From: an uncultured Alphaproteobacteria bacterium
Lineage (GTDB): Bacteria; Pseudomonadota; Alphaproteobacteria; Rhizobiales; Beijerinckiaceae
NCBI GenBank assembly: GCA_963824465.1
Contig: CAWGPL010000008.1
Span: forward strand, 1,820 to 65,819
Direction of reading: 5' to 3'
DNA: 64,000 bases
Shown: positions 6,449 through 59,497 of the stretch, piece after piece
Numbering within the stretch: position 1 is the first letter of the stretch
Layout of the letters: each line of letters starts with the position of its first letter
Program-made: the position numbers and the translations under genes
Notes under the pieces: model-generated
What the model was told of the DNA's origin: nothing
The model's database searches: none
What the model saw: only the letters and a program-made list of their open reading frames with translations

Positions 6449-8255
6449 ATGCTCGATGCGACGGCGGAGGGCCGCATCAATCACGTATTAGGCGAACTGG
6501 ACGAGGCGCTTCAGGCCAGCGATCTCGATCGCGCGCTGAAATTGTTTCAGGACGATTGCTATTGGCGCGATCTCGTCGCCTTCACGTGGAACCTCAAGAC
6601 CCTCGAAGGCAAAGACGCCATTCGCGGCATGCTGCAGGCGCAGCTTCCCTCCGTGAAGCCGATTGGATGGGCGGTCGATTCTGGACGCAGGCGCCTCAGA
6701 AGCGGAGGGCGTCACCGAGGGGTGGTTCACCTTCGAGACGGAGGTATTTCGCGGTTACGGACAGGTGCGGCTCAAGGACGGAAAGATCTGGACGCTGCTC
6801 ACTACCGCCGCCGAACTGAAGGGTCACGAGGAGCCAACCGGTTCCCATCGCCCATTTGGCGCGAAGCACGGCGCGGGCAAACATCGCAAGAGCTGGAAGG
6901 AAGAGCGCGAGGAAGAGGCGAAGACGCTCGGCTACACCAAGCAGCCGTACGCGGTGATCATTGGCGGAGGCCAGGGAGGCATCGCGCTCGGCGCACGTCT
7001 CCGGATGCTCGGCGTGCCCACGATCATCGTCGAGAAGAACGCCCGGCCCGGCGACAGCTGGCGCAATCGCTACAAGTCGCTCTGCCTGCACGATCCGGTC
7101 TGGTACGACCACTTGCCCTATTTGCCGTTCCCGCCGAACTGGCCGGTCTTTTCGCCAAAGGACAAGATCGGCGACTGGCTCGAGATGTATGTCAAGGTGA
7201 TGGAGCTCAATTACTGGGCGTCGACCACCTGCAAGTCCGCCAAATACGACGAGAAGAAGAAGGAATGGGCGGTCGTCGTCGAGCGCGACGGCAAGGAGAT
7301 CACGCTCAAGCCCAAGCAGCTCGTGCTCGCAACCGGCATGTCGGCGAAGCCGAATTTGCCGAAGTTCCCCGGCATGGAAAAGTTCAAGGGCGAGCAGCAT
7401 CATTCTTCCAAGCATCCCGGGCCCGACGCCTACGCGGGCAAAAAGGTCGTCATCGTCGGCTCGAACAACTCGGCGCACGACATCTGCCGCCGCCCTCTGG
7501 GAGAACGGCGCCGACGTGACGATGGTGCAGCGTTCGTCGACCCATATCGTGCGCTCGGACACGCTGATGAAAATCGGCCTCGGCGACGCTCTATTCCGAG
7601 GAGGCGGTGGCGAGCGGCATCGACGACCACCGAAGGCCGATCTCATCTTCGCTTCGATCCCCTATAAGATCATGCACGAGTTCCAGATCCCGCTGTACGA
7701 GCAGATGCGCGAGAAGCGACGCGGACTTCTACGAGGGGCTGGACAAGGCCGGCTTCTGGCACGACTGGGGCGCGGACGGACTCGGGTCTGTTCATGAAAT
7801 ATCTGCGCCGCGGCTCGGGCTATTACATCGACGTCGGCGCGAGCCAGCTCATCATCGACGGCAAGATCAAGCTCAAGCGCGGTCAGGTGAAAGAGATCAC
7901 CGAAAAAGGCGTGAAGCTCGAAGACGGCACGGAACTGCCCGCCGACGTGATCGTCTATGCGACCGGCTACAGTTCGATGAACGGCTGGGCGGCGGATCTC
8001 ATCAGCCAGGAGGTCGCCGACAAGGTCGGCAAGGTCTGGGGCCTAGGCTCGAACACGCCGAAGGACCCCGGTCCGTGGGAAGGCGAGCAGCGCAATATGT
8101 GGAAGCCGACGCAGCAGGAAGCGTTATGGTTCCACGGCGGCAACCTGCATCAGTCGCGACACTATTCGCAGTTCCTCGCATTGCAACTGAAGGCGCGGCA
8201 AGAGGGCATTCCCACGCCCGTCTACGGACTGCAGGAGACACATCACCGCGGCTGA
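6449..8255 (+). CDS. Type II flavin-containing monooxygenase with N-terminal SnoaL-like extension; several apparent frameshifts
   Basis: YWRDLVAFTWN extension, GGGQGG FAD motif, WRNRYKSLCLHDP, FKGEQHHSSKH FMO fingerprint, GSNNSAHD, YATGY; GGAGG RBS. Confidence 0.88.
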
Positions 8256-8272
8256 CCCGCCTTGGTCGGCGG

Positions 8273-9031
8273 TTATTGCGCCAGCACCGACAGCATCTGG
8301 TCGAAAGCGCCGGACGGCACCCGGAAGAGGCCGCTGAACGGCTGGCTCATTTCGAGAATGAGGAACAGCGCGCTGCCGACCGCGAACGCGCCGAGCGCCA
8401 GCGCGCCTATGCTCGTCGGCGTGATGCGCGACAGGAAGCCGAAGCCGCAGAAAAGGATCAGTCCCCAGGAAATCACGACCACGACCAACGGCCACGAGAC
8501 CGGGCTCGCAAGCTGAAGCGAGATGAGGATCCGTGTCTGCTCAATGATCGCCGCGTCCGTGGCGGCGGCCGCTGCGAATTGCCTTTGCGCCGGAGTTTTG
8601 GGATCGAGGGACGCCAGATACTCGTCCATCAGCCTGAGATGGGACAACGGCGCTCCAACCGAGAGATCCGCCGTGTTCGGCCCGGCCTCGCCCCAGACCG
8701 CATCGCGCACGCCCTGAAACGTCGCCTTCATGGCCTGACGGGCGACCTTTGTCTCAGGTCCGTATTCGCTCAGCGCCATGTCGAGTTGGACGACGCGCGC
8801 CGAAAGCGTTTCGATTTCCGATTTCTGAGTGGAGTAGAAGCTGTAGGACGAACCGACCAGCGTTCCGAGCACAAGGGCCATCAGAAGCGAGACGAGGCCG
8901 ACGATCGCGCCGATCATGTCGCGCGAATTGGAGGCGTGCTCTTCGGGCAGGATCTTGTGCAGATTGAGCCCGACCACGCCGGCGCAAAAGGCCAGAACCG
9001 CGACGCCTATGCAAAGCCAGAAAGACGCCAT
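8273..9031 (-). CDS. DUF4239-like membrane protein
   Basis: 4-5 hydrophobic segments; ALVLGTLVGSS and FLILEMSQPFSGLFRV motifs. Confidence 0.7.
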   Translation of the reverse strand: MASFWLCIGVAVLAFCAGVVGLNLHKILPEEHASNSRDMIGAIVGLVSLLMALVLGTLVGSSYSFYSTQKSEIETLSARVVQLDMALSEYGPETKVARQAMKATFQGVRDAVWGEAGPNTADLSVGAPLSHLRLMDEYLASLDPKTPAQRQFAAAAATDAAIIEQTRILISLQLASPVSWPLVVVVISWGLILFCGFGFLSRITPTSIGALALGAFAVGSALFLILEMSQPFSGLFRVPSGAFDQMLSVLAQ

Positions 9032-9187
9032 CCCGCTTGATCCCCCTCCGCCCCAATTTACCAGCGAGCGAACTTGCCGGATTGCGACGCACTATCCAAG
9101 GGTCTTTTCTGGCCTTTCAGGGGGTCGGCGGCGGCATGGCGAAGGCCAGCCCCGTTATCGAGGCTGCCCTCGCCCTTTTTTGCAGCC

Positions 9188-10177
9188 TTAGTTGCCCATC
9201 ATCGACTTGGCGTTATCCGGCGTGATCGCGGTCGTCGGCACCGTGACGTTGTCGGAAACGCTGTCGGCGCAGTCGAGCAGGACTTTCTTGGCCATGTCGA
9301 TCGCCTGATCGGCGCCGGTCGGATAGGTGAAGGTCGCCGCCCATTCGCCTTCGGCAACCGCACGGATGCCGCCCGAAGGTCCGGGCAGGCCGTCGGTGCC
9401 GATGATCTTGATGTCGCCGTCCTTCTTGCCCGCACCTTTCGCCGCGAGGCGCGCGCCCGCCGCCATCATGTCGTTGCTGGCGTAGACGGCCTTGATGTCC
9501 GGATGAGCCTGAAGCATCGCCGCGAAAGCGGTTTGCGCTTTGTCGGGCAGCCAGTCGGCGGCCTGCTCGGCGACAACCTTGATCTTCGGGTTGGCCTTCA
9601 CGCCGGCCTTGAATTCGTCGAGGCGCTCCACGGCGGGCGTCGAACTCGGAAGACCTTCAAGCACTGCGACGTCGCCGCCGTCCGGCAGCAGTTTGTCCGC
9701 CATATATTTTCCGGCCTCTTCGGCGATCTTGAAATTATCGCCGCCGATAAACGCAGTGTAGTCCTTGCCCGGCGTGCCGAGCGTCTTGCGATCGAGTTCG
9801 ATCACCGGAATGCCTGCCTTCATGGCGCGGGCGACGACGGGCGTCAGCGGCGCCGCCTCGAAAGGCGAGATGAGGATCAGGTCGACCTTCTGGGTGATGA
9901 AATTGTCCATCTGCGAAGTCTGGGTGTTCACGTTGCCGGCGCCGTCGGCGATCTGCAGCGTAAACTGCGGAACCTTGGCGGCTGCGGCCGTCAGTTGCTC
10001 GTTGACGTGCGCCCGGTAAGGCTCGGCGTTGTTGGCCTGCGAGAAGCCGATGACGTATTTGTCGTCTTTGCCGCAGGCCTTGGCGAGATGCGCCGAAGCG
10101 CCGCCCGCAATCAGCGCGCATGCGGCGACTCCAAGCGTCGCGGCGCGCATATGGGTTCGTCTTGTCCAATTCATCAT
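9188..10177 (-). CDS. Sugar ABC transporter periplasmic binding protein (RbsB/CUT2 type)
   Basis: Signal peptide; IGFSQANNAEPYR, VIELDR, FIGGDNFKIAEEAG, ASNDMMAAGA, IIGTDG. Confidence 0.92.
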   Translation of the reverse strand: MMNWTRRTHMRAATLGVAACALIAGGASAHLAKACGKDDKYVIGFSQANNAEPYRAHVNEQLTAAAAKVPQFTLQIADGAGNVNTQTSQMDNFITQKVDLILISPFEAAPLTPVVARAMKAGIPVIELDRKTLGTPGKDYTAFIGGDNFKIAEEAGKYMADKLLPDGGDVAVLEGLPSSTPAVERLDEFKAGVKANPKIKVVAEQAADWLPDKAQTAFAAMLQAHPDIKAVYASNDMMAAGARLAAKGAGKKDGDIKIIGTDGLPGPSGGIRAVAEGEWAATFTYPTGADQAIDMAKKVLLDCADSVSDNVTVPTTAITPDNAKSMMGN

Positions 10178-10218
10178 GTCACTCCCTTGCGTCGAACGGG
10201 TTCGTTCGCGCCGCACTG

Positions 10219-11266
10219 TTATCGACCCAATCCCTCGCGGCGGCGGACGAGAGACTGAAGGACCGCGGCAAGCACGATGATCGCGCCGGTGGCGAGCAGT
10301 TGCAGCGCCGCGTTGATGTTATTGAGCTGAAGGATGTTGGCGAGCGCGCCGAGCATCACGGCGCCGGCGACGGTTCCGACCATCGAGCCCGACCCACCAA
10401 AAAGGCTCGTCCCGCCGATGACCACAGCTGCGATGGCGGTCAATTCGTAGCCTGTGCCGTCATTGGCGCTGCCGAAGTTGAACTGTCCGGCGTGCACGAT
10501 GCCCGCAATCGCGGAGACCAAGCCGGTGATCGCGTAGACCGACACCTTGACGAGCGAGACCGGCACGCCCGAAAGTCGCGCCGCACGTTCGTTGCCGCCG
10601 ACGGCGTAAACATAGCGCCCGAAGCGGGTGAAGTTGAGCACGAAGGTTGCGATCACCGCCACCACGACGAACACCAGCGTCGCCACCGGCACGGTGTTGT
10701 CGAAAAGCCGATCGCCGAGAATGGCGAAGACGGGCGGCGCGAGGCCTGGGCCTACGCCATATGAAATGTTGATGTACTGGTTGTTGGAAATCACGAGCGC
10801 AAGTCCGCGCGCCACCTGAAGCCCGGCCAGGGTCACGATGAACGGCTCGAGCCGGAAGCGATTGGAGATGAGCCCCTGCGTCGCGCCGAACGCCGAGCCG
10901 CAGAGGAGGACGACAAGGATCGTGGGAATAAGCCCCCAGCCTCCGGTCGTCATGATCGTCGCGGTGAGCACGCTGCATAGGCTCAGGAGCGCGCCAACCG
11001 AAAGGTCGATGCCCGCGGTGATAATGACGAAAGTCATGCCGACCGCGATGATGCCGGTCTCGGACACGGCGCGGACGATATTGGCCATGTTGTCGGGCTG
11101 AAGAAAGAGAACCGCCCCGTGCCGGCGCGGCGAGAAAATAACGCCCCCGATCGCGACCAACACCAGGCCGATCACGCTCTGGAAGCGCACCGCGATGGCG
11201 AAAAAGTCGAGGCGCCGGCGGCCTGAAGCCGATGTGCCGGAAGCGAGAGTTCGCAGGCTGGCTCAC
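10219..11266 (-). CDS. Sugar ABC transporter permease (RbsC type); apparent frameshift near 11250
   Basis: GMTFVIITAGIDLSVG, TRFGRYVYAVGGNERAARLSG, GYELTAIAAVVIGGTSLFGG; GTG start overlaps the ATPase stop. Confidence 0.92.
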
Positions 11267-12804
11267 GCGTGTTCCTCCTCGTTGGCTTCGGCGGTCGCAA
11301 GCACTTCATGTTCGTCGGCGCCGCCGGGAAATTCGGCGACCGTGCGGCCGCCGCGCAGCACAACGATCCGGTCGCACAAGCCCAGCAGCTCCGGCATTTC
11401 GCTCGATGCGACGAGGACGCCCATGCCCTTGGCCGCGAGTTCGCGGATGCGCGCGTAGATCTCCCCCTTGGCGCCGACGTCGACCCCGCGCGTCGGCTCG
11501 TCGAGCAACAGGAGGCGTGGACCGCCCAGCACCTCCTTGGCGATGACGACCTTCTGCTGGTTGCCGCCGGAAAGCGCGCCGACGACAATCTCGGGCAGGG
11601 GCGGGCGCACGTCGAAGGCGCGGATCGCCTCCTTCGCGAGCGATGTCTCGCGCGATCTTGACATGAGAAAGAAGGGCGAAACGCGTTCGAGCACCGTCAG
11701 CACGACGTTGCGCCCGACCGTGTCGCGCAGGAGAAGGCCACTGCCGCGCCGGTCGTCCGTCACGAGGCCAAGCCCTTCTCCGCGCGCGTTGCGGATCGAG
11801 CCGAGACGCGCGGGCGCGCCGTCGATCTCGACGACGCCCGACCACGTTCCCGCGCCCGCGGCGCCGTAGAGCGCCGTAAGCAGCTCGGTGCGTCCTGCCC
11901 CCATGATGCCAGCGAGACCGACGATTTCGCCCGCGCGCACTTCGAGCGTCACATCCTCGGCCGCCTGCCAGCCGGGCCGCTCGGTCCGGGGAGAAAAGCG
12001 CGCGCGCTCCAAACGCAGAACGGGCGCGCCGAACTGGGTCGCGCGGGGCGGATAGAGTTCGTCGAGCGGCCGCCCGACAAGAAGGCGCACAAGCTCCGAT
12101 TGCGGCGCGCTCGCTGGGGCGACGCCCGCAACCTGTCCGTCGCGCATGACCGTCACCCGGTTCGCGACGCGCGCGACTTCTTCGAGACGGTGGGAGATGT
12201 AGACGATGCCGACGCCGCGCGCCGCGATCTCGCGCATGACGACAAAGAGCCGTTCGACCTCGGATGCGGTCAACGCCGCCGTTGGCTCGTCCATGATGAG
12301 GATGTTCGAGGCGTAGGTCAGCGCCTTGGCGATGGCGACGATCTGGCGCCGCCCGACCGACAATTCGCCAACCGGCTGATCGACGTCGATGTCGGTTCCA
12401 ACCGCGCTCAGCCGCTTCACGGCCTCCGCTCGCATCGAAGCGCGGTCGAGCACGCCGGCTCGCGTCAGTTCGCGCCCGAGGAACAGATTGGCCGTCACAT
12501 CGAGGCCCGGCACGAGGTCGAGCTCTTGGAAGATCGTGGCCACTCCATGCGCCTGCGCGGCGCGCGGATCGGCGAAGCGGACGGGCTCGCCTTCCAGCAG
12601 CACCTCGCCCGCGTCCGGCGCGAAGACGCCGGAGAGGATATTCATCAGCGTCGACTTGCCCGCGCCGTTCTCGCCGAGCAGCGCATGGATTTCACCGCGC
12701 TTGAGGTCGAAATCGACTCCGCGCAGGGCCTGCGCGCCGCCGAAGCGTTTGACGACGCCACGCATCGCAAGAAGAGGCGTCGCATTTTCCGCGGTCGCAT
12801 TCAT
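11263..12804 (-). CDS. Sugar ABC transporter ATP-binding protein (RbsA type, two NBDs)
   Basis: [24 protein letters not shown]; second domain [24 protein letters not shown]; own ATG at 12804. Confidence 0.93.
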   Translation of the reverse strand: MNATAENATPLLAMRGVVKRFGGAQALRGVDFDLKRGEIHALLGENGAGKSTLMNILSGVFAPDAGEVLLEGEPVRFADPRAAQAHGVATIFQELDLVPGLDVTANLFLGRELTRAGVLDRASMRAEAVKRLSAVGTDIDVDQPVGELSVGRRQIVAIAKALTYASNILIMDEPTAALTASEVERLFVVMREIAARGVGIVYISHRLEEVARVANRVTVMRDGQVAGVAPASAPQSELVRLLVGRPLDELYPPRATQFGAPVLRLERARFSPRTERPGWQAAEDVTLEVRAGEIVGLAGIMGAGRTELLTALYGAAGAGTWSGVVEIDGAPARLGSIRNARGEGLGLVTDDRRGSGLLLRDTVGRNVVLTVLERVSPFFLMSRSRETSLAKEAIRAFDVRPPLPEIVVGALSGGNQQKVVIAKEVLGGPRLLLLDEPTRGVDVGAKGEIYARIRELAAKGMGVLVASSEMPELLGLCDRIVVLRGGRTVAEFPGGADEHEVLATAEANEEEHA

Positions 12805-48076: not shown

Positions 48077-49036
48077 ATGCGCGTCATTCGCCGAAGGGGA
48101 TGGGAAATCCCTCAGTCGCTCGCGACGCCCGAGGCGGCGTTTCTCGACCGTCGGACGTTTCTAGCCGGGCTCGGCGTGGCCGGAACTCTTGCCACGGGCG
48201 CAACGCTCGCCTTGCCAGGGACCGCGCGAGCGGAAGGAAATCCTTCCGATTCGCTCTATCCCGCGAAGCGGAACCCCGCATACACGCTCGACCGCGACGT
48301 AACGCCCGAGAAATACAATCTCAGCTACAACAATTTTTACGAGTTCTCGACCAGCAAGAAGGTCAACGCCACTCCGCTGAAGACCCGGCCTTGGACGGTC
48401 ATCATCGATGGACTGGTCGAGAAAGAACAGACGGTCGACATCGACACGCTAATCAAGACAATGGGCCTCGAGGAGCGCCTTTATCGGCACCGCTGCGTCG
48501 AAGCTTGGTCGATGGCGATCCCGTGGACCGGATTCCCGCTGAAGAAGCTCGTGGACTTCGCCAAGCCTTTGTCCAAGGCTGCCTATGTCCGGTTCGAAAC
48601 GTTCCTGGACAAGAGTATGGCGCCCGGTCAGCGCGGCTTCCTGCCGTGGCCCTATATCGAGGGGCTGACGATTGCGGAGGCGACGAACGACCTCGCCTTC
48701 ATGGCAACCGGCGCGTACGGCAAGCCGCTCGCCAACGTGCAAGGCTCGCCGATCCGGCTCGCCGCTCCCTGGAAATACGGATTCAAATCGATCAAGTCGA
48801 TCGTGCGCGTGTCTTTCGTCGACAAGCGACCCCAGACGTTTTGGGAGACGTTAGGCCCGGAGGAGTATGGGTTCTGGGCGAACGTCAACCCCGCGGTTCC
48901 GCATCCGCGCTGGAGCCAGGCTGAAGAGACCTTCCTCAACGACGGGCGGAAACGCCCGACTTTGATCTACAACGGCTACGGCGAGCAGGTGGCGTCGCTG
49001 TATAAGGGGCTCGAAAAGGAGCCGCTCTTCATGTGA
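48077..49036 (+). CDS. msrP: Periplasmic methionine sulfoxide reductase catalytic subunit (molybdopterin)
   Basis: DRRTFL Tat signal, YNNFYEF, RHRCVEAWSM, WPYIEGL, PWKYGFKSIKSI, EYGFWANVNP..HPRWSQA. Confidence 0.96.
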   Translation: MRVIRRRGWEIPQSLATPEAAFLDRRTFLAGLGVAGTLATGATLALPGTARAEGNPSDSLYPAKRNPAYTLDRDVTPEKYNLSYNNFYEFSTSKKVNATPLKTRPWTVIIDGLVEKEQTVDIDTLIKTMGLEERLYRHRCVEAWSMAIPWTGFPLKKLVDFAKPLSKAAYVRFETFLDKSMAPGQRGFLPWPYIEGLTIAEATNDLAFMATGAYGKPLANVQGSPIRLAAPWKYGFKSIKSIVRVSFVDKRPQTFWETLGPEEYGFWANVNPAVPHPRWSQAEETFLNDGRKRPTLIYNGYGEQVASLYKGLEKEPLFM

Positions 49037-53870: not shown

Positions 53871-54169
53871 ACTTATGCAGCGCCTCCGTTCTGAACTGCG
53901 AGGAGTTGATAGCGCGCGAGACCTTGCCTCGCCTCGAGCGTAGCAAGTTTGGATCAAGTCACGGACGAACGCCGTATCTTGTTGCCGCCGCACGCGGGGG
54001 AGAGGCTCGGGTGTCGGGGGTGAGGCGACGAAGGCGACAGCGGGGATTTGATCGGTCAACGACCGCGTCTCCAAATCGTCGCGGGTTCGCGCTATCCATG
54101 AGGCCAATTTGGCGCTCACACCATTAAGATCGGCCTCAAGCATTGAAGACACGAAAGCAGAAGCCCCAG

Positions 54170-54934
54170 ATGCGGCGACGCTTGGTTTGGCTCACTGCTG
54201 TGATTTTCACCTTCGCGTTCGCGCCTGCGCCCGCTCAGGCCGACCCCAACGCCCTTTGGCAGATTGTTCACGGTCAGTGCGTGCCCCATGTCGAAGCGGG
54301 CCTGGGGCCGAAGCCGTGCCAACAGGTCGATCTTGCCGGGGGCGTGGCCGAGGGCGTCGCCATCCTCAAGGACATCGTCGGCGCGACGCAGATGCTGGCG
54401 ATTCCGACCCGGCGGATCACCGGCATCGAGGACTCGCAGATGCTTGCGCCCGACGCGCCAGATGTTTTCGGCGACGGATGGAAGGCGCGGACCTTGATCG
54501 AGGCCATCTTGAAGCGGCCGGCGCCGCGCGAGACGATCTCGCTCGCGATCAACTCGAAATGGGCTCGTAGCCAACAGCAATTGCATGTCCATCTGGACTG
54601 CGTCGCGGTCTCGGTCGCCGCGGCGCTCAAGGACTACGCTCCCTCCCTCGACGAGATCTGGCGGCCCATGACCGTCCCGCTCAATGGCCAGATCTATTTC
54701 GCCCGGCGGTTGATCGCGGAGGACCTCACCGGTGTTAACCCGATCCTGATGCTGGCCGACGGAATGGAAGGCGCGAGGGCCAACATGGGCGGCTGGTCCC
54801 TGGCGGCCGTCGGGGCGAACTTCGAGGGCAAGGCCGGATTCGTCCTGCTCGCGGACCGGTTCTCGCTCGAAGGCGGCGGCCATGCGGAGGACCTCCAGGA
54901 TCACAATTGCGCGATCTTGCGTTCGGCGCCATGA
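54170..54934 (+). CDS. cdh: CDP-diacylglycerol pyrophosphatase, exported
   Basis: Signal peptide; DPNALWQIVHGQC, LKDIVG, IPTRRITGIE, LAINSKWARSQQQLHVHLDC, AEDLQDHNC. Confidence 0.9.
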   Translation: MRRRLVWLTAVIFTFAFAPAPAQADPNALWQIVHGQCVPHVEAGLGPKPCQQVDLAGGVAEGVAILKDIVGATQMLAIPTRRITGIEDSQMLAPDAPDVFGDGWKARTLIEAILKRPAPRETISLAINSKWARSQQQLHVHLDCVAVSVAAALKDYAPSLDEIWRPMTVPLNGQIYFARRLIAEDLTGVNPILMLADGMEGARANMGGWSLAAVGANFEGKAGFVLLADRFSLEGGGHAEDLQDHNCAILRSAP

Positions 54935-55029
54935 ATAGAGCCGGCTCGTCCTGGCGGGCGGCCGGAATGCGGGTTCGGGGGCCGCATCGGAATTTTGCGG
55001 CGCTGCGCCCGGGGTTGGGGAGCGTGGCC

Positions 55030-55605
55030 ATGCGTTTCATCCTGAAGGTGTTGCTGGGTCTCGGACTGGTTTTTGCCGTCCAGAGCCAGGCGCTTGCGTA
55101 CGTAAGCATAGACGTCGATCTGACGTCGCAAACCATGCATGTCCGGTCGGGCTCGGGCGCCAATTACGTGTGGCCGATTTCTTCCGGCCGGGAAGGCCAT
55201 GCGACGCCGCGCGGCGTGTTCCATCCGCGGGCGCTCTACACGATGGTCCATTCGGCCAAATACAACAACGCGCCGATGCCGCATTCGATCTTCTTCTACG
55301 GCCAATATGCGATCCACGGCACGAACGCGGTCGGAGCGCTGGGTCGGCCCGCCTCGCACGGATGCGTCCGGCTCTCGCCGGCCGCCGCGGCGACACTGTT
55401 CGCGATGGTGCAGCGGGAGGGCGCCCAGATTCGGATCATCGGATCGCCGGAGCCTATGGTGGCGCATCGCCATATGCACGGCCATCGCGCCTATGCGCAT
55501 CACCATGCCCATTCGCCGGAGACGGCGCTTGGCTATGCTTCTGTCCATCACGCCCGGACGGCCCGGACGCTCAGCCAATGGGCGAAGAACCCGGTTTTGC
55601 GATAG
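55030..55605 (+). CDS. L,D-transpeptidase (YkuD family) with His-rich C-terminal tail
   Basis: Signal peptide; WPISSGR..TPRG, APMPHSIFF, AIHGT...ASHGCVRL catalytic motif. Confidence 0.93.
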   Translation: MRFILKVLLGLGLVFAVQSQALAYVSIDVDLTSQTMHVRSGSGANYVWPISSGREGHATPRGVFHPRALYTMVHSAKYNNAPMPHSIFFYGQYAIHGTNAVGALGRPASHGCVRLSPAAAATLFAMVQREGAQIRIIGSPEPMVAHRHMHGHRAYAHHHAHSPETALGYASVHHARTARTLSQWAKNPVLR

Positions 55606-55828
55606 CGCCCCCCGCCACAAGTCCGCCACAGCGCTTGGCTACGGGCCCCGCAGGTTCCGTCATGGACGAATCGGCATGCGGCGAACGCGCCCTTGGCCGA
55701 TTGGAATATTGACGCGAGGGAAGCTCGCCGCCCGCGATTTGGCGCTGGAAAGCCTCCTTTGGCAGTCGCGTTTTGTGGCGACCTGCGGTAGTAGCCGCCG
55801 AGCGGCGGTGCATTGAGGAGGGTCTTGG

Positions 55829-56700
55829 GTGCGGAGACGGGATTTCTTGGCCGGCGCGGCCGGATTGGTCGGCGCGCCTCTCGCATCGCGTCTCGCCTTG
55901 GCGAATGTGCCGACGCCCTTTCACCTTCGACATGGCGCCGCCGATGAACGACAAGGCGAAGTTCATCGCCTGGGGCGTCGCGCAGCGCGGCGAGGAGCCG
56001 AAGTTCCTCGGCGAGCGGTTCGACCGCTTCAGCGCATGGTCCGCAACGAGGACCTCGTGCGACGACCGCAACAAGCGCGCCTTCCTGCTGACGCCGCGCG
56101 AGAGATTCGTGCTGCAGCAGAATCTCGGCCGCGCCTATGACCACGCCTTCCTCGACATCGGCTACGGCGTGACCATCTCCGGCCCGCATATCGTCGGGCG
56201 CATGACCTCGAACATCGATCCGAAGCAGGGCGAGAAGGTGCTCGAGGTCGGCACCGGCTCCGGCTACCAGTCGGCCTATCTCTCGCACCTGACCGACAAG
56301 GTGTTCACGATCGAGATCATCAAGCCGCTCGCCGAGCGCACGCGCGGCATCTACGACGCGCTGATCACGGATGGCTACACCGAGTTCGGCGAACATCACC
56401 TCCAAGAACGCCGACGGCTATTACGGCTGGGAGGAGAACGCGCCCTTCGACAAGATCATCGTCACCTGCGGCATCGACCACGTTCCGCCGCCGCTGCTGC
56501 AGCAGCTCAAGCCCGGCGGGATCATGGTGATCCCGGTCGGCCCGCCCGGCGCGCAGCACGTGCTGAAGGTCGTGAAGAACGAGGCGTCCGACGGCACAGT
56601 CACCGTCGCCCGCTCCGACATCTATGGCGGCCGCATCGTGCCCTTCGTGCCCTTCACCAAGCTCGAAGGCGATCAGATCGTCGGCACGCACAACAACTGA
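55829..56700 (+). CDS. pcm: Protein-L-isoaspartate O-methyltransferase homologue with Tat signal peptide; several apparent indels
   Basis: GAGGAGG RBS; MRRRDFLAGAAGLVGAPLASRLALA; TPRERF, IGYGVTISGPH, VLEVGTGSGYQ, TIEI, DGYYGW, APFDKIIVTCG, QLKPGGIMVIPVG, FVPF. Confidence 0.88.
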
Positions 56701-56781
56701 CGCGAGGCCGCGTTTTCGGACGCTAGCCGAAGGCGGCGCGCTCTGCGGAAGCGTGCGTCATGCACGGCCTGCGAGAGCGAC

Positions 56782-59497
56782 ATGAACGAGGCGAGCCCCA
56801 TTTCCCCGGTCGCCGGAGCGGTCGTCGAGCGACCACCACGACGACGCGGTTCTGACGGATCGCGAGCGGCTCGGGCTTTATTTCGCGGTCGGCCTTGGCG
56901 GCCGGCGCGGTCATCGCCCTGCAGATCGACATCATGCGCGTGTTCTCGGTCGGCAGCTGGGCGCATTTCGGCTCGCTGGTCGTGAGCCTCGCGCATGCTC
57001 GGCTTCGGCCTGACCAGCGCCGTGATGACGCTCGCCAAGGACTGGTTCGCACCGCCACTGGCGCGGCGGTCGCGACCGTCGCGCTCGGCCTGTTCGGGCC
57101 GCTCGCCGTCGCCGCCAACCTCTATGTCCAGCACCTTGGCTTCAACGCCATCTTCCTGGTTTCCGATCCGGCGCAGAAGTGGAAGCTTCTGCAGATCTTT
57201 CTGGCTCTAGCTGACGCCGTTCCTCGCCGGCGCGGTCTTCCTCGGCTGCGTCTTCCTCAAGAGCAACCGGACCTTCGGCCGCGTCTATTTCGCCGACCTC
57301 GCCGGCTCTGGGCTTTGCGGGCTTGCTGTTCCTGCTGGCGATGTATGTCTTCGTTCCGGCCAATCTGATCGCCGCGCCGCTTGGGCTGTGGCTCGCGGCG
57401 CTGCGTCGCCTGGGCGCTCGGCCCGGGCGGAAAGCGCGCGCTCGCTGCCCTATCTCGCCGTCGGCGCTGCTCGCGTTCGCCGGCCACTTCTGGATCGCGC
57501 CGGCCTCTCGGCCTCCAAGACGCTCGCGGTCAACGACTACAAGGGCGTCGCCTACGCCCGGAAATTCCCGGATGCGAAGCGCGTCTACGAGAGCGCCTCG
57601 CCCTTCGGCTATCTCGAGGTCTATTCGAGCTCCTACCTGCATTTCGCGCCCGGCCTGTCCGACAACGCGGCCTTCAGCCTGCCGACCATGCCGGCCAACG
57701 CCTATCTCGGCCTCTATATCGACAGCGAAGGCCCGATCGGCGTCATGCGCGACCTCGCCGACAAGGAGACGGCCTATTTCCGCTTCCTGCCGATGTACTA
57801 CCCCTATCGTGATCAAGAAGGACCCCAAGACCTTCGTCGTTCAGTTCGGCGGCGGCATCTCGACCGAGGTGGCGCTGCATTCCGGCGCGAAGGACGTCAC
57901 CGTCGCCGAGGGCAACCCGGCGGTCCTCGCGCGTTCCACGAGCGACGTCTTCAGGAAGTTCACCGGCGACATCCTCGTCGAAAGTCAGGGTCATCGACTA
58001 CGAGGGCCGCCACTATCCTCGCCCACACGCACGGAGCGCTACGACGTCATCGACCTGAGCCTCGCGGATTCCGTCGGCCTTTCCAACCCCGGCGGCTTCG
58101 CCATCGTCGAGAAGTACCCCTACACGAACGAGGCGATGGAGACCTACATGCGCGCGCTCGCGCCGGGCGGCGTCCTGTCGGTCACGCTGTGGAACAAGGA
58201 AGAGCCGCCGAAGTCGGTCCTGAAGCTCTACGCGACGATGGCCGCCGCCGGCGCAGGCGGTCGACCGCCAAGACGGCCGCCAATTCGTTCTTCGTCGCCT
58301 CGTGCTATCTCTCGACCGCGACGGTGCTCTACAAGCGCGGCGGCTTCACGCCGGACGAGATCGACGAAGCTGCGCAAGCACACGCGCGACATGTCGTTCG
58401 ACGAGATCTATTCCCCGGCTTTCCGTTCGACGGCACGCAGACGAACGCCACGCTCGACGGCTACGTCGCAGCAGATTTTCGGCGGCAGCCGGCGGACCGC
58501 CGGCGCCCGAGCGCCGACGCGTCCGCCGACGGCCGATCCGACAGCGCCGCCGCGACAGGACGCGGGCGACGACGGCGCGCCGCCGTCCGGCAAGGCGGAC
58601 GACGGCGTCGCTGCCCGCCACCGTCATGGGCCGGCTCGCCTGGCATGCCTGATCGACGGCGGCTGGCCGAGATCGCGAAGCGCTATGTCTTCAACACCCG
58701 GGCGCTGACCAACGACGGCCTTATTTCGCCGCCTATGTGAAGACTCGCGACCTGCCGCGCGTCACTCGACCGGCTGGAGCTGCTCCAGGACGAGTGGGGC
58801 TATCTGCTGATCTGGGCGACGCTCGGCGTCGCCTGCCTGACCGCGCGTCCTGCTCGCTGCTTCCGGTGGTCTTCGGCTGGCGCGCCGATCTTCTCCCATA
58901 CGCCCGGCAAGATGCGCGCACGATCGCTCTATTTCGCCTGCCTCGGCGCCGGCTACATCATGGTCGAGGTCGGGCTCATCGCCCATTTCGTGATGGCGCT
59001 CGGCAACCCCACCGTCTCCGCCTCGGTCCTGATCACCGGCATGCTCGTCTTCTCCGGCCTGGGCGCGCTGGTTTCCGAGCGGGTTCTGCCGCGCATGCGC
59101 GTGATCATGCCGGCGATTTTCCTGCTGATCGGCGGGCTGCTGCTGGCTTTACGCCTTCCGATCGACACCGTGCTCGAGGCCATCGGCGCGCTCCCCTATG
59201 CGGTGCGGCTCGTCTGCTGCTTCGCTGCTGATCGCGCCGCCCGCCTTCCTGATGGGCTTCCCGATGCCGACGGCGATGACCACGCTCGGCCGGCTCGGCA
59301 AGGAGCACATGTTCATCTGGGCCTGGGGCGTCAACGGCTGCTTCTCGGTCATCGGCGCGGCGGCTGCGCCCGTCATCGCCACCAATTTCGGGCTCGCCGC
59401 CGTGATCGAGATCGCAGCTGTCGCCTACCTGCTCGCGCTCCCCGCCTTCTTCGGGGTAATCGCCGAGCCGAGGGCGCCTGCCCGAGCCCAAAAATGA
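56782..59497 (+). CDS. Large polytopic membrane protein with central spermidine-synthase/class I methyltransferase-fold domain; many apparent indels
   Basis: Fragments tile into one gene: SLAMLGFG, PFLAGAVFLG, VYFADLAGSG; soluble SPFGYLEV, VVQFGGG, VTVAEGNP, EGR, YDVIDLSLADS, YT.EAM, LAPGGVLSVT; YFACLGAGYIMVE, FLMGFPMP, WAWGVNGCFSVIG. Confidence 0.75.

Follow-up and report, generated by a model that had tools for sequence, protein, structure and literature searches.

Organisation of the gene pair

The window analysed here, a stretch of 64,000 nucleotides from contig CAWGPL010000008.1 (positions 1,820 to 65,819; assembly GCA_963824465.1) of an uncultured alphaproteobacterium of the family Beijerinckiaceae, contains two neighbouring genes that may together serve methylation outside the cytoplasm. 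The first encodes an exported-type protein L-isoaspartate methyltransferase (PIMT, or Pcm) of about 290 residues (positions 55829..56700), and the second a membrane protein of about 890 residues in relatives (56782..59497), with fourteen helices and the fold of the major facilitator superfamily (MFS). Both are encoded on the plus strand. A ribosome-binding site, GAGGAGG (55815..55821), is located seven bases before the GTG start codon of the PIMT gene at 55829. The gene starts with a twin-arginine signal peptide (55829..55903), recognised by its pattern and conserved in relatives, in which RRRDFL precedes a hydrophobic core and an ALA cleavage site. The Thr-Ile-Ser motif that binds isoaspartate is found at 56172..56180 and motif I for binding S-adenosylmethionine (SAM), VLEVGTGSGY, at 56238..56267. 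Pfam family PF01135 matches both halves of this frameshifted gene, which ends in a TGA stop codon (56698-56700). After a gap of 81 bp, the membrane gene runs from an ATG at 56782 to a TGA at 59495-59497. It encodes helices 1-7 (the amino-terminal MFS domain and a first extra helix, approximately 56850..57510), an inserted class I SAM-binding domain with the spermidine-synthase fold, predicted to be periplasmic (57511..58788, ends approximate; glycine loop at 57848-57856), and helices 8-14 (a second extra helix and the carboxy-terminal MFS domain, approximately 58789..59464). An earlier note, made from this DNA alone, had described the same start and signal, and a membrane gene of about 900 codons some 80 bp downstream.

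Both genes are broken by insertions and deletions in the window and intact in relatives, where the signal and the PIMT core share one frame. The PIMT gene has two frameshifts, near 55920 and near 56394, as well as a pair around 56035/56060 that compensate each other, and its signal joins the core only across the one near 55920; its pieces match an intact orthologue (P0002) at 82-90% in tblastn. In the membrane gene, about 30 single-base insertions or deletions are common to comparisons with five orthologues, and there is no in-frame stop between them. The ratio of nonsynonymous to synonymous counts is 0.42-0.51 for this copy and 0.28-0.41 among four orthologues, while the adjacent cdh, LD-transpeptidase and rhodanese genes each match in one frame. 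We favour an error of assembly over an early decay of the copy. A chance or shadow reading of the pair is ruled out by its conservation in relatives. DNA resembling both genes occurs together in 22 of 24 genomes drawn from the same genus; of the other two, one has the genes on separate contigs (G011) and one yielded the PIMT alone (G015). Close relatives of the membrane gene belong to Roseiarcus, Methylocapsa and uncultured Alphaproteobacteria, and Roseiarcus fermentans DSM 24875 is a cultured carrier of an intact copy (locus L066). The structural work was done on intact orthologues of the same genus, P0001 for the membrane protein (883 residues) and P0002 for the PIMT (290 residues).

The exported-type methyltransferase

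The intact PIMT orthologue matches PF01135 with 148.9 bits (cut-off 20.3). Its predicted structure (predicted local distance difference test score, pLDDT, 93.5) superposes on the solved PIMTs 3lbf, 1jg1 and 2yxe with Z-scores of 30.5-31.0 and r.m.s.d. values of 1.2-1.4 over 207-211 aligned residues. According to the part of the source available, inactive PIMTs have lost the isoaspartate-binding Thr and Ser and the Asp-Gly that binds SAM or S-adenosylhomocysteine (SAH) (PMC11522691). Among 63 non-redundant PIMTs linked to the membrane gene, these residues are kept in 60 (Thr), 62 (Ser), 63 (Asp) and 63 (Gly). By sequence score the protein is a distinct subfamily, since the intact orthologue falls short of the NCBIfam equivalog cut-offs, with 172 bits for NF001453 (cut-off 188) and 143 for TIGR00080 (cut-off 159.05).

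The pattern of a substrate of twin-arginine translocation (Tat), an RRxFL motif followed by a hydrophobic core and an AxA site, is present in the window and in relatives, with the Pfam TAT_signal family matching the orthologue only weakly (E 0.05). The signal is in frame in 69 of 72 scored PIMTs from close genomes. This and all other signal calls below come from a simple hydrophobicity heuristic of our own and not from SignalP. The source genome also encodes a separate, signal-less pcm behind surE. A second, intact twin-arginine PIMT is located about 8.5 kb past the end of the window (C8:74364-75209; L024:10365-11210), directly behind a gene of the dienelactone-hydrolase family and with no membrane partner; in this protein TITPP replaces TISGP. 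Convergent on it is a secreted lipase-like open reading frame (L024:11229-12188, minus strand), with what we take, from its motifs, to be a PEP-CTERM-like tail. Extra twin-arginine PIMT copies are frequent among members of the genus.

The membrane protein and its inserted domain

The model of P0001, made from a 99-row alignment (pLDDT 90, predicted template modelling score 0.91), has a soluble domain of some 420 residues set between two groups of seven helices. In a full structural search, the membrane part best matches the vesicular transporter VMAT2 (9kqa; Z-score 28.1, r.m.s.d. 3.6, 347 aligned residues). Among the 50 matches listed, all have Z-scores of at least 19.8 and nearly all are MFS-type transporters. 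The modelled arrangement is that of 14-helix MFS proteins, with twelve core helices and two extra central ones. There is no Pfam MFS match to the sequence, and a comparison of one half of the membrane part with the other by hhalign gave no signal of an internal repeat (probability 0.4%). In the helices, Glu711, Asn833, Ser837, Tyr160 and Tyr864 are invariant and Trp828 and Trp830 nearly so (P0001 numbering); such acidic and aromatic residues would fit a cationic, aromatic cargo.

The inserted domain resembles spermidine synthases (profile E 2.8e-14, Foldseek E 1e-5) and keeps the features of class I SAM-binding proteins: Gly345 in 90, Gly347 in 93, Glu365 in 94, Glu/Asp396 in 87 and Arg398 in 97 of 99 aligned sequences. 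Residues 396 and 398 form the adenine-side [DE]xR motif and Glu365 is the acidic ribose-binding residue; the first glycine of the glycine loop is replaced by glutamine in the clade of the window. The acidic position of the GGG[D/E]G motif of spermidine synthases aligns, in the HMMER alignment, with Gly346 (Gly in 79 and Asp in 1 of 99). The available part of one source states that this acidic residue selects decarboxylated SAM, and that its replacement abolishes aminopropyl transfer and permits the use of SAM (PMC3725402). The catalytic Asp after strand 4 aligns with Ser414, a column in which Ser (49 of 99), Pro (25) and Ala (14) prevail and Asp is not among the six commonest residues. Because the acidic loop residue and the catalytic Asp are both replaced, the database label of spermidine synthase appears unlikely from the sequence, and a SAM/SAH site in the domain likely; the absence of both aminopropyltransferase aspartates led us to reject identity as a spermidine synthase as very improbable. 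The fused MFS/spermidine synthase family NF037959 (cut-off 40 bits) gave no match at E<=0.1 on three intact orthologues, and NF002956 scored 13.4 for a cut-off of 472.

The family is large, with 1,927 clusters at 50% identity (E<=1e-30), and its Atlas clusters point to Pseudomonadota, Spirochaetota and Acidobacteriota. A distant homologue is found in a Gram-positive host, on a plasmid of Alkalihalophilus pseudofirmus (NC_013792.1; L362), next to genes for a serine hydrolase, YncE and a molybdo-reductase-like protein; no PIMT is annotated within 6 kb.

Two lines of evidence bear on the orientation in the membrane. The mean number of Lys and Arg residues is 1.7-3.9 in the loops after helices 2, 4, 6, 8, 10 and 12 and 0.01-0.56 in the odd loops, so that both termini would be inside and the inserted domain outside. 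In two natural fusions (L219, positions 7980-11462, and P0126), a secreted hydrolase follows helix 14 through a fifteenth hydrophobic segment led by Arg-Arg, which places the carboxy-terminus in the cytoplasm and the inserted domain, seven helices earlier, in the periplasm. We predict with high confidence that the inserted domain and the PIMT, the two SAM folds of the system, are both periplasmic.

Linkage and export signals across genomes

A PIMT gene is present at 190 of 206 assessable membrane-gene loci, a further 14 loci being cut by contig ends. By set, the counts are 72 of 74 (close), 9 of 12 (order), 20 of 25 (class), 22 of 22 (new phylum-level) and 67 of 73 (metagenome); the flanks scanned were 1.5 to 8 kb long and the sets may overlap slightly. 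Since kin are not independent, these counts are descriptive. In the opposite direction, a single draw of 301 class-level genomes contains 13 with a PIMT match at E<=1e-42, and every one of these belongs to the 30 with a membrane-gene match. Public annotation likewise places pcm directly before the membrane gene in Phyllobacterium zundukense and in a Paraburkholderia plasmid. Export signals were called on 176 of 182 scored neighbouring PIMTs, 118 of them Tat-like, 54 Sec-like and 4 lipoprotein-like; 12 more lacked the anchor motif and 4 were cut. Controls were the best PIMT matches of 30 genomes without the membrane gene, and 2 of the 29 scored were flagged with a signal, one probably falsely. 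Distance matrices of 63 pairs correlate with a rho of 0.88 (permutation maximum 0.22). The linked PIMTs form three clades, long, short and Caulobacterales-like, the last encoded downstream of the membrane gene, and two genomes (G535 and G745) each contain two pairs from different clades.

Of ten genomes checked in which no PIMT adjoins the membrane gene, four encode a signal-bearing PIMT elsewhere. The linkage, though strong, has exceptions, and the membrane family extends beyond its PIMT client. In some loci, two or three PIMTs with signals stand in tandem next to a single membrane gene (L198:2862-5753; L146 and L147; L313:9671-11269), which suggests several clients or substrates per supplier.

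Contact between the two proteins was assessed by a joint structure prediction of the mature PIMT, the outer domain and SAM, co-folding of the pair being a check proposed in the earlier note. The score is 0.59, and none of the three controls exceeds 0.00; contacts agree between runs to at least 29% and the partner pLDDT is at least 86. In the calibration, which is only approximate for the alignments used here and with a riding ligand, the threshold passes 116 of 157 solved complexes together with 2 of 215 mismatches, but only 18 of the 157, and both mismatches, pass it with a score of no more than 0.60. The model clears its controls and, with weak support by calibration, hints at a direct contact between PIMT and membrane protein.

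A secreted serine hydrolase as third part

A dedicated profile found a secreted serine hydrolase in 86 loci, with the nucleophile motif A[YF]SGG in 75 of them. The protein is alpha/beta-hydrolase-like and its Atlas neighbours are named alpha/beta hydrolase; it has no Pfam match, and its best sequence matches in the PDB, to carboxylesterases, have an E of 0.18. Among long-clade loci, 30 of 40 have the gene behind the pair; among short-clade and Caulobacterales-like loci whose flank was long enough, none of 19 does (a further 4 were cut). In the class draw, it is present in 6 of the 301 genomes, all among the nine with a long-clade pair, and all 29 high-quality genomes of the genus have it. The source genome encodes it apart from the pair (C3:433435-434450; L363:7436-8587, minus strand), with a lipoprotein-like signal. 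There it is located directly before a twin-arginine gene of the DsbA family and divergent from a region with a mepA-type endopeptidase. One may speculate that the hydrolase clears methyl esters or opens succinimides.

Other neighbouring genes

Further conserved neighbours of the pair amount to genus-level synteny only, in a survey where open reading frames under 90 residues were not called and the gene caller, having missed the hydrolase, may have missed other partners. Genes for a CDP-diacylglycerol pyrophosphatase and an LD-transpeptidase precede the pair (54143-55605, plus strand), an arrangement confined to the genus. A homologue of msrP with a twin-arginine signal is located 6.8 kb upstream (48077-49036, plus strand), and the list of open reading frames has no msrQ-like gene adjacent to it.

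Proposed function and alternatives

Bacterial SAM chemistry is regarded as confined to the cytoplasm. An intact, SAM-dependent PIMT that is exported to the periplasm would need SAM supplied there and SAH removed. The simplest reading is SAM/SAH exchange, because the PIMT's constant partner has a transporter fold and carries its adenosyl-binding domain on that side of the membrane. The membrane protein would export SAM, likely in exchange for SAH, its outer domain would act as a loading dock that holds the cofactor, and it would likely hand SAM to the PIMT for methylating sites of isoaspartyl damage in envelope proteins. This combination of exchange, hand-over and envelope isoaspartate repair is our best reading of the data, held tentatively and at a little under even odds. 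Its parts carry their own weights. That SAM crosses through the MFS cavity, lined by the conserved acidic and aromatic residues, is probable; that the substrate is protein isoaspartate is somewhat favoured. In a broader form, and with a slight balance in its favour, the membrane protein would serve bacteria as a SAM exporter, its MFS part forming the channel and its periplasmic domain binding SAM, and would feed methylation outside the cytoplasm. Its clients would be exported PIMTs with Tat, Sec or lipoprotein signals and the secreted esterase, in an envelope methyl cycle spread over several phyla.

The interpretation in the earlier note is partly supported. All of its computable predictions hold: the PIMT signal is conserved, the two genes occur together across genomes, a separate signal-less pcm is present, the membrane part has the MFS fold, its inserted domain is predicted to be periplasmic, and the co-fold passes, if weakly. 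Its picture of two parts defined by Tat export needs revision. The pair stands, with the secreted hydrolase added as a third part, and Tat is not the defining feature, as 54 of the 176 signals were scored as Sec-type and 4 as lipoprotein signals. Tat export of a pre-loaded PIMT could give one turnover, and the note had argued from such cofactor-loaded export. Sec-type signals imply unfolded export, so these PIMTs would depend on a local supply; with the Sec-type and lipoprotein signals the argument from cofactor-loaded Tat export falls and the need for local SAM grows. Pre-loading as the sole supply is disfavoured by the 54 linked PIMTs scored as Sec-type.

Several observations weigh against exchange and repair. 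Amines, carnitine, oxalate and nucleosides are the substrates of the nearest MFS structures, and the fold by itself points to none. The window copy of the pair is frameshifted, the PIMT is under its equivalog cut-offs, the signals were called by our own heuristic, and the mirror-tree correlation partly reflects shared ancestry. PIMT repair is not known to involve a dedicated esterase. Six of the ten checked genomes without an adjoining PIMT (G095, G444, G449, G624, G493 and G485), all with distant membrane homologues, showed no signal-bearing PIMT; the membrane protein can therefore exist without an exported PIMT and may itself be an enzyme. Conversely, a 100%-complete genome (G026) has a signal-bearing PIMT (L305:6937-7656), and neither profile A1 nor NF037959 found a membrane partner in it.

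The main alternative is dedicated modification of the envelope, for which the hydrolase and the second SAM-fold domain leave room. Here SAM would also cross through the MFS part, the outer domain would itself be a methyltransferase, and PIMT and hydrolase would maintain a methyl-ester or aspartimide cycle with a single substrate, such as a cell-wall peptide carboxyl, a polysaccharide or a secreted peptide. The tie of the hydrolase to the long-clade pair (30 of 40 loci, and fused in two sequences) favours this somewhat, as do the membrane homologues without exported PIMT and the role of PIMT homologues as peptide maturases (TIGR04188 and TIGR04364 match, below cut-off). However, no conserved precursor peptide, glycosyltransferase or cell-wall gene adjoins the pair beyond the genus (among open reading frames of at least 90 residues), the LD-transpeptidase neighbours 46 loci of which none is from the wide sets, and the catalytic Asp of the spermidine-synthase fold is lost. 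We regard dedicated modification as possible, though rather unlikely. Together with exchange for repair, it makes a periplasmic supply of SAM probable on balance, with less probability for the remaining alternatives (uptake, a non-catalytic subunit or polyamine synthesis).

In an uptake or salvage system, the outer domain would capture external SAM, SAH or methylthioadenosine for import by the MFS part, and the PIMT would use environmental SAM or serve as a binding protein. An outer ligand-binding domain on an MFS protein suits uptake, the fold matches include an equilibrative nucleoside transporter (6ob6, Z-score 25.1) and bacterial SAM importers are known. Yet the PIMT retains its substrate-binding Thr and Ser, no salvage enzymes cluster with the pair, and free SAM is unstable and presumably scarce in soil, which makes uptake improbable. 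The exported PIMT could also be a non-catalytic subunit of the membrane protein, for which the PIMT subunit of Paracoccus complex I provides a precedent (PMC11522691) and the co-fold some weak support. As far as the available part of that paper goes, the Paracoccus subunit has lost the Thr, Ser, Asp and Gly that are kept in at least 60 of the 63 linked PIMTs, and unlinked and tandem PIMT paralogues occur, so we consider this very unlikely. A membrane-bound spermidine synthase or polyamine exporter with a secondary PIMT link, to which the source names and the best sequence and fold matches of the domain point, is the least probable of all, given the change of the GGG[D/E]G acidic position to Gly346 and of the catalytic Asp to Ser414, the lack of a neighbouring speD cluster and scores far under the hidden Markov model cut-offs.

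If SAM/SAH exchange is correct, this conserved way of bringing SAM through the inner membrane would represent a novel type of transporter and would open a new envelope chemistry. It would explain how isoaspartate is handled in long-lived periplasmic proteins of slow-growing soil bacteria, as a counterpart of MsrPQ for methionine oxidation. This large family appears to be mislabelled as spermidine synthase in databases. The claim is directly testable, as Roseiarcus fermentans can be cultured.

Comparison with known systems

The PIMT has the same fold, SAM motifs and isoaspartate-binding Thr/Ser as cytoplasmic-type PIMT/Pcm (EC 2.1.1.77; PF01135). It differs by its export signal, about 30 extra amino-terminal residues in the mature protein, scores below the equivalog cut-offs and a membrane partner gene. 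A substrate-site-deficient PIMT paralogue, described in the available part of another source, is a different protein (PMC5705917).

The membrane part shares its fold, with two extra central helices, with 14-helix MFS transporters such as NorC (7d5p) and a homologue of Rv1410 (8pnl), at Z-scores of 21-28, but has a SAM-fold domain of about 420 residues between the extra helices and no Pfam MFS match. By analogy, Rv1410 passes its cargo to an exported partner, LprG. The fused MFS/spermidine synthases (NF037959) and membrane SpeE proteins (PRK03612, NF002956) likewise join helices to a domain with the spermidine-synthase fold, whereas here the aspartates of aminopropyl transfer are absent and the model cut-offs are not reached.

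METTL9 is also a SAM-dependent protein methyltransferase that acts outside the cytosol; unlike the present system it is eukaryotic, methylates histidine nitrogen, follows the ER-Golgi route and has no linked transporter described in the available part of the preprint (bioRxiv 10.64898/2025.12.23.696137). Our literature search found no description of an exported bacterial PIMT, of the membrane family or of periplasmic SAM chemistry, although subscription papers or supplements may mention them.

A parallel in logic is MsrPQ, where an exported repair enzyme is likewise served by an inner-membrane partner that supplies something made only in the cytoplasm. The two share no family: in MsrPQ electrons pass through a haem protein, while here a small-molecule cofactor would pass through an MFS fold, and the MsrPQ families (molybdopterin oxidoreductase and haem membrane subunit) gave no match to the proteins of the pair, which leaves an analogy only. 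The pair is real, conserved and, within the literature searched, undescribed; it belongs to no described system, and would represent a new kind if SAM transport is shown.

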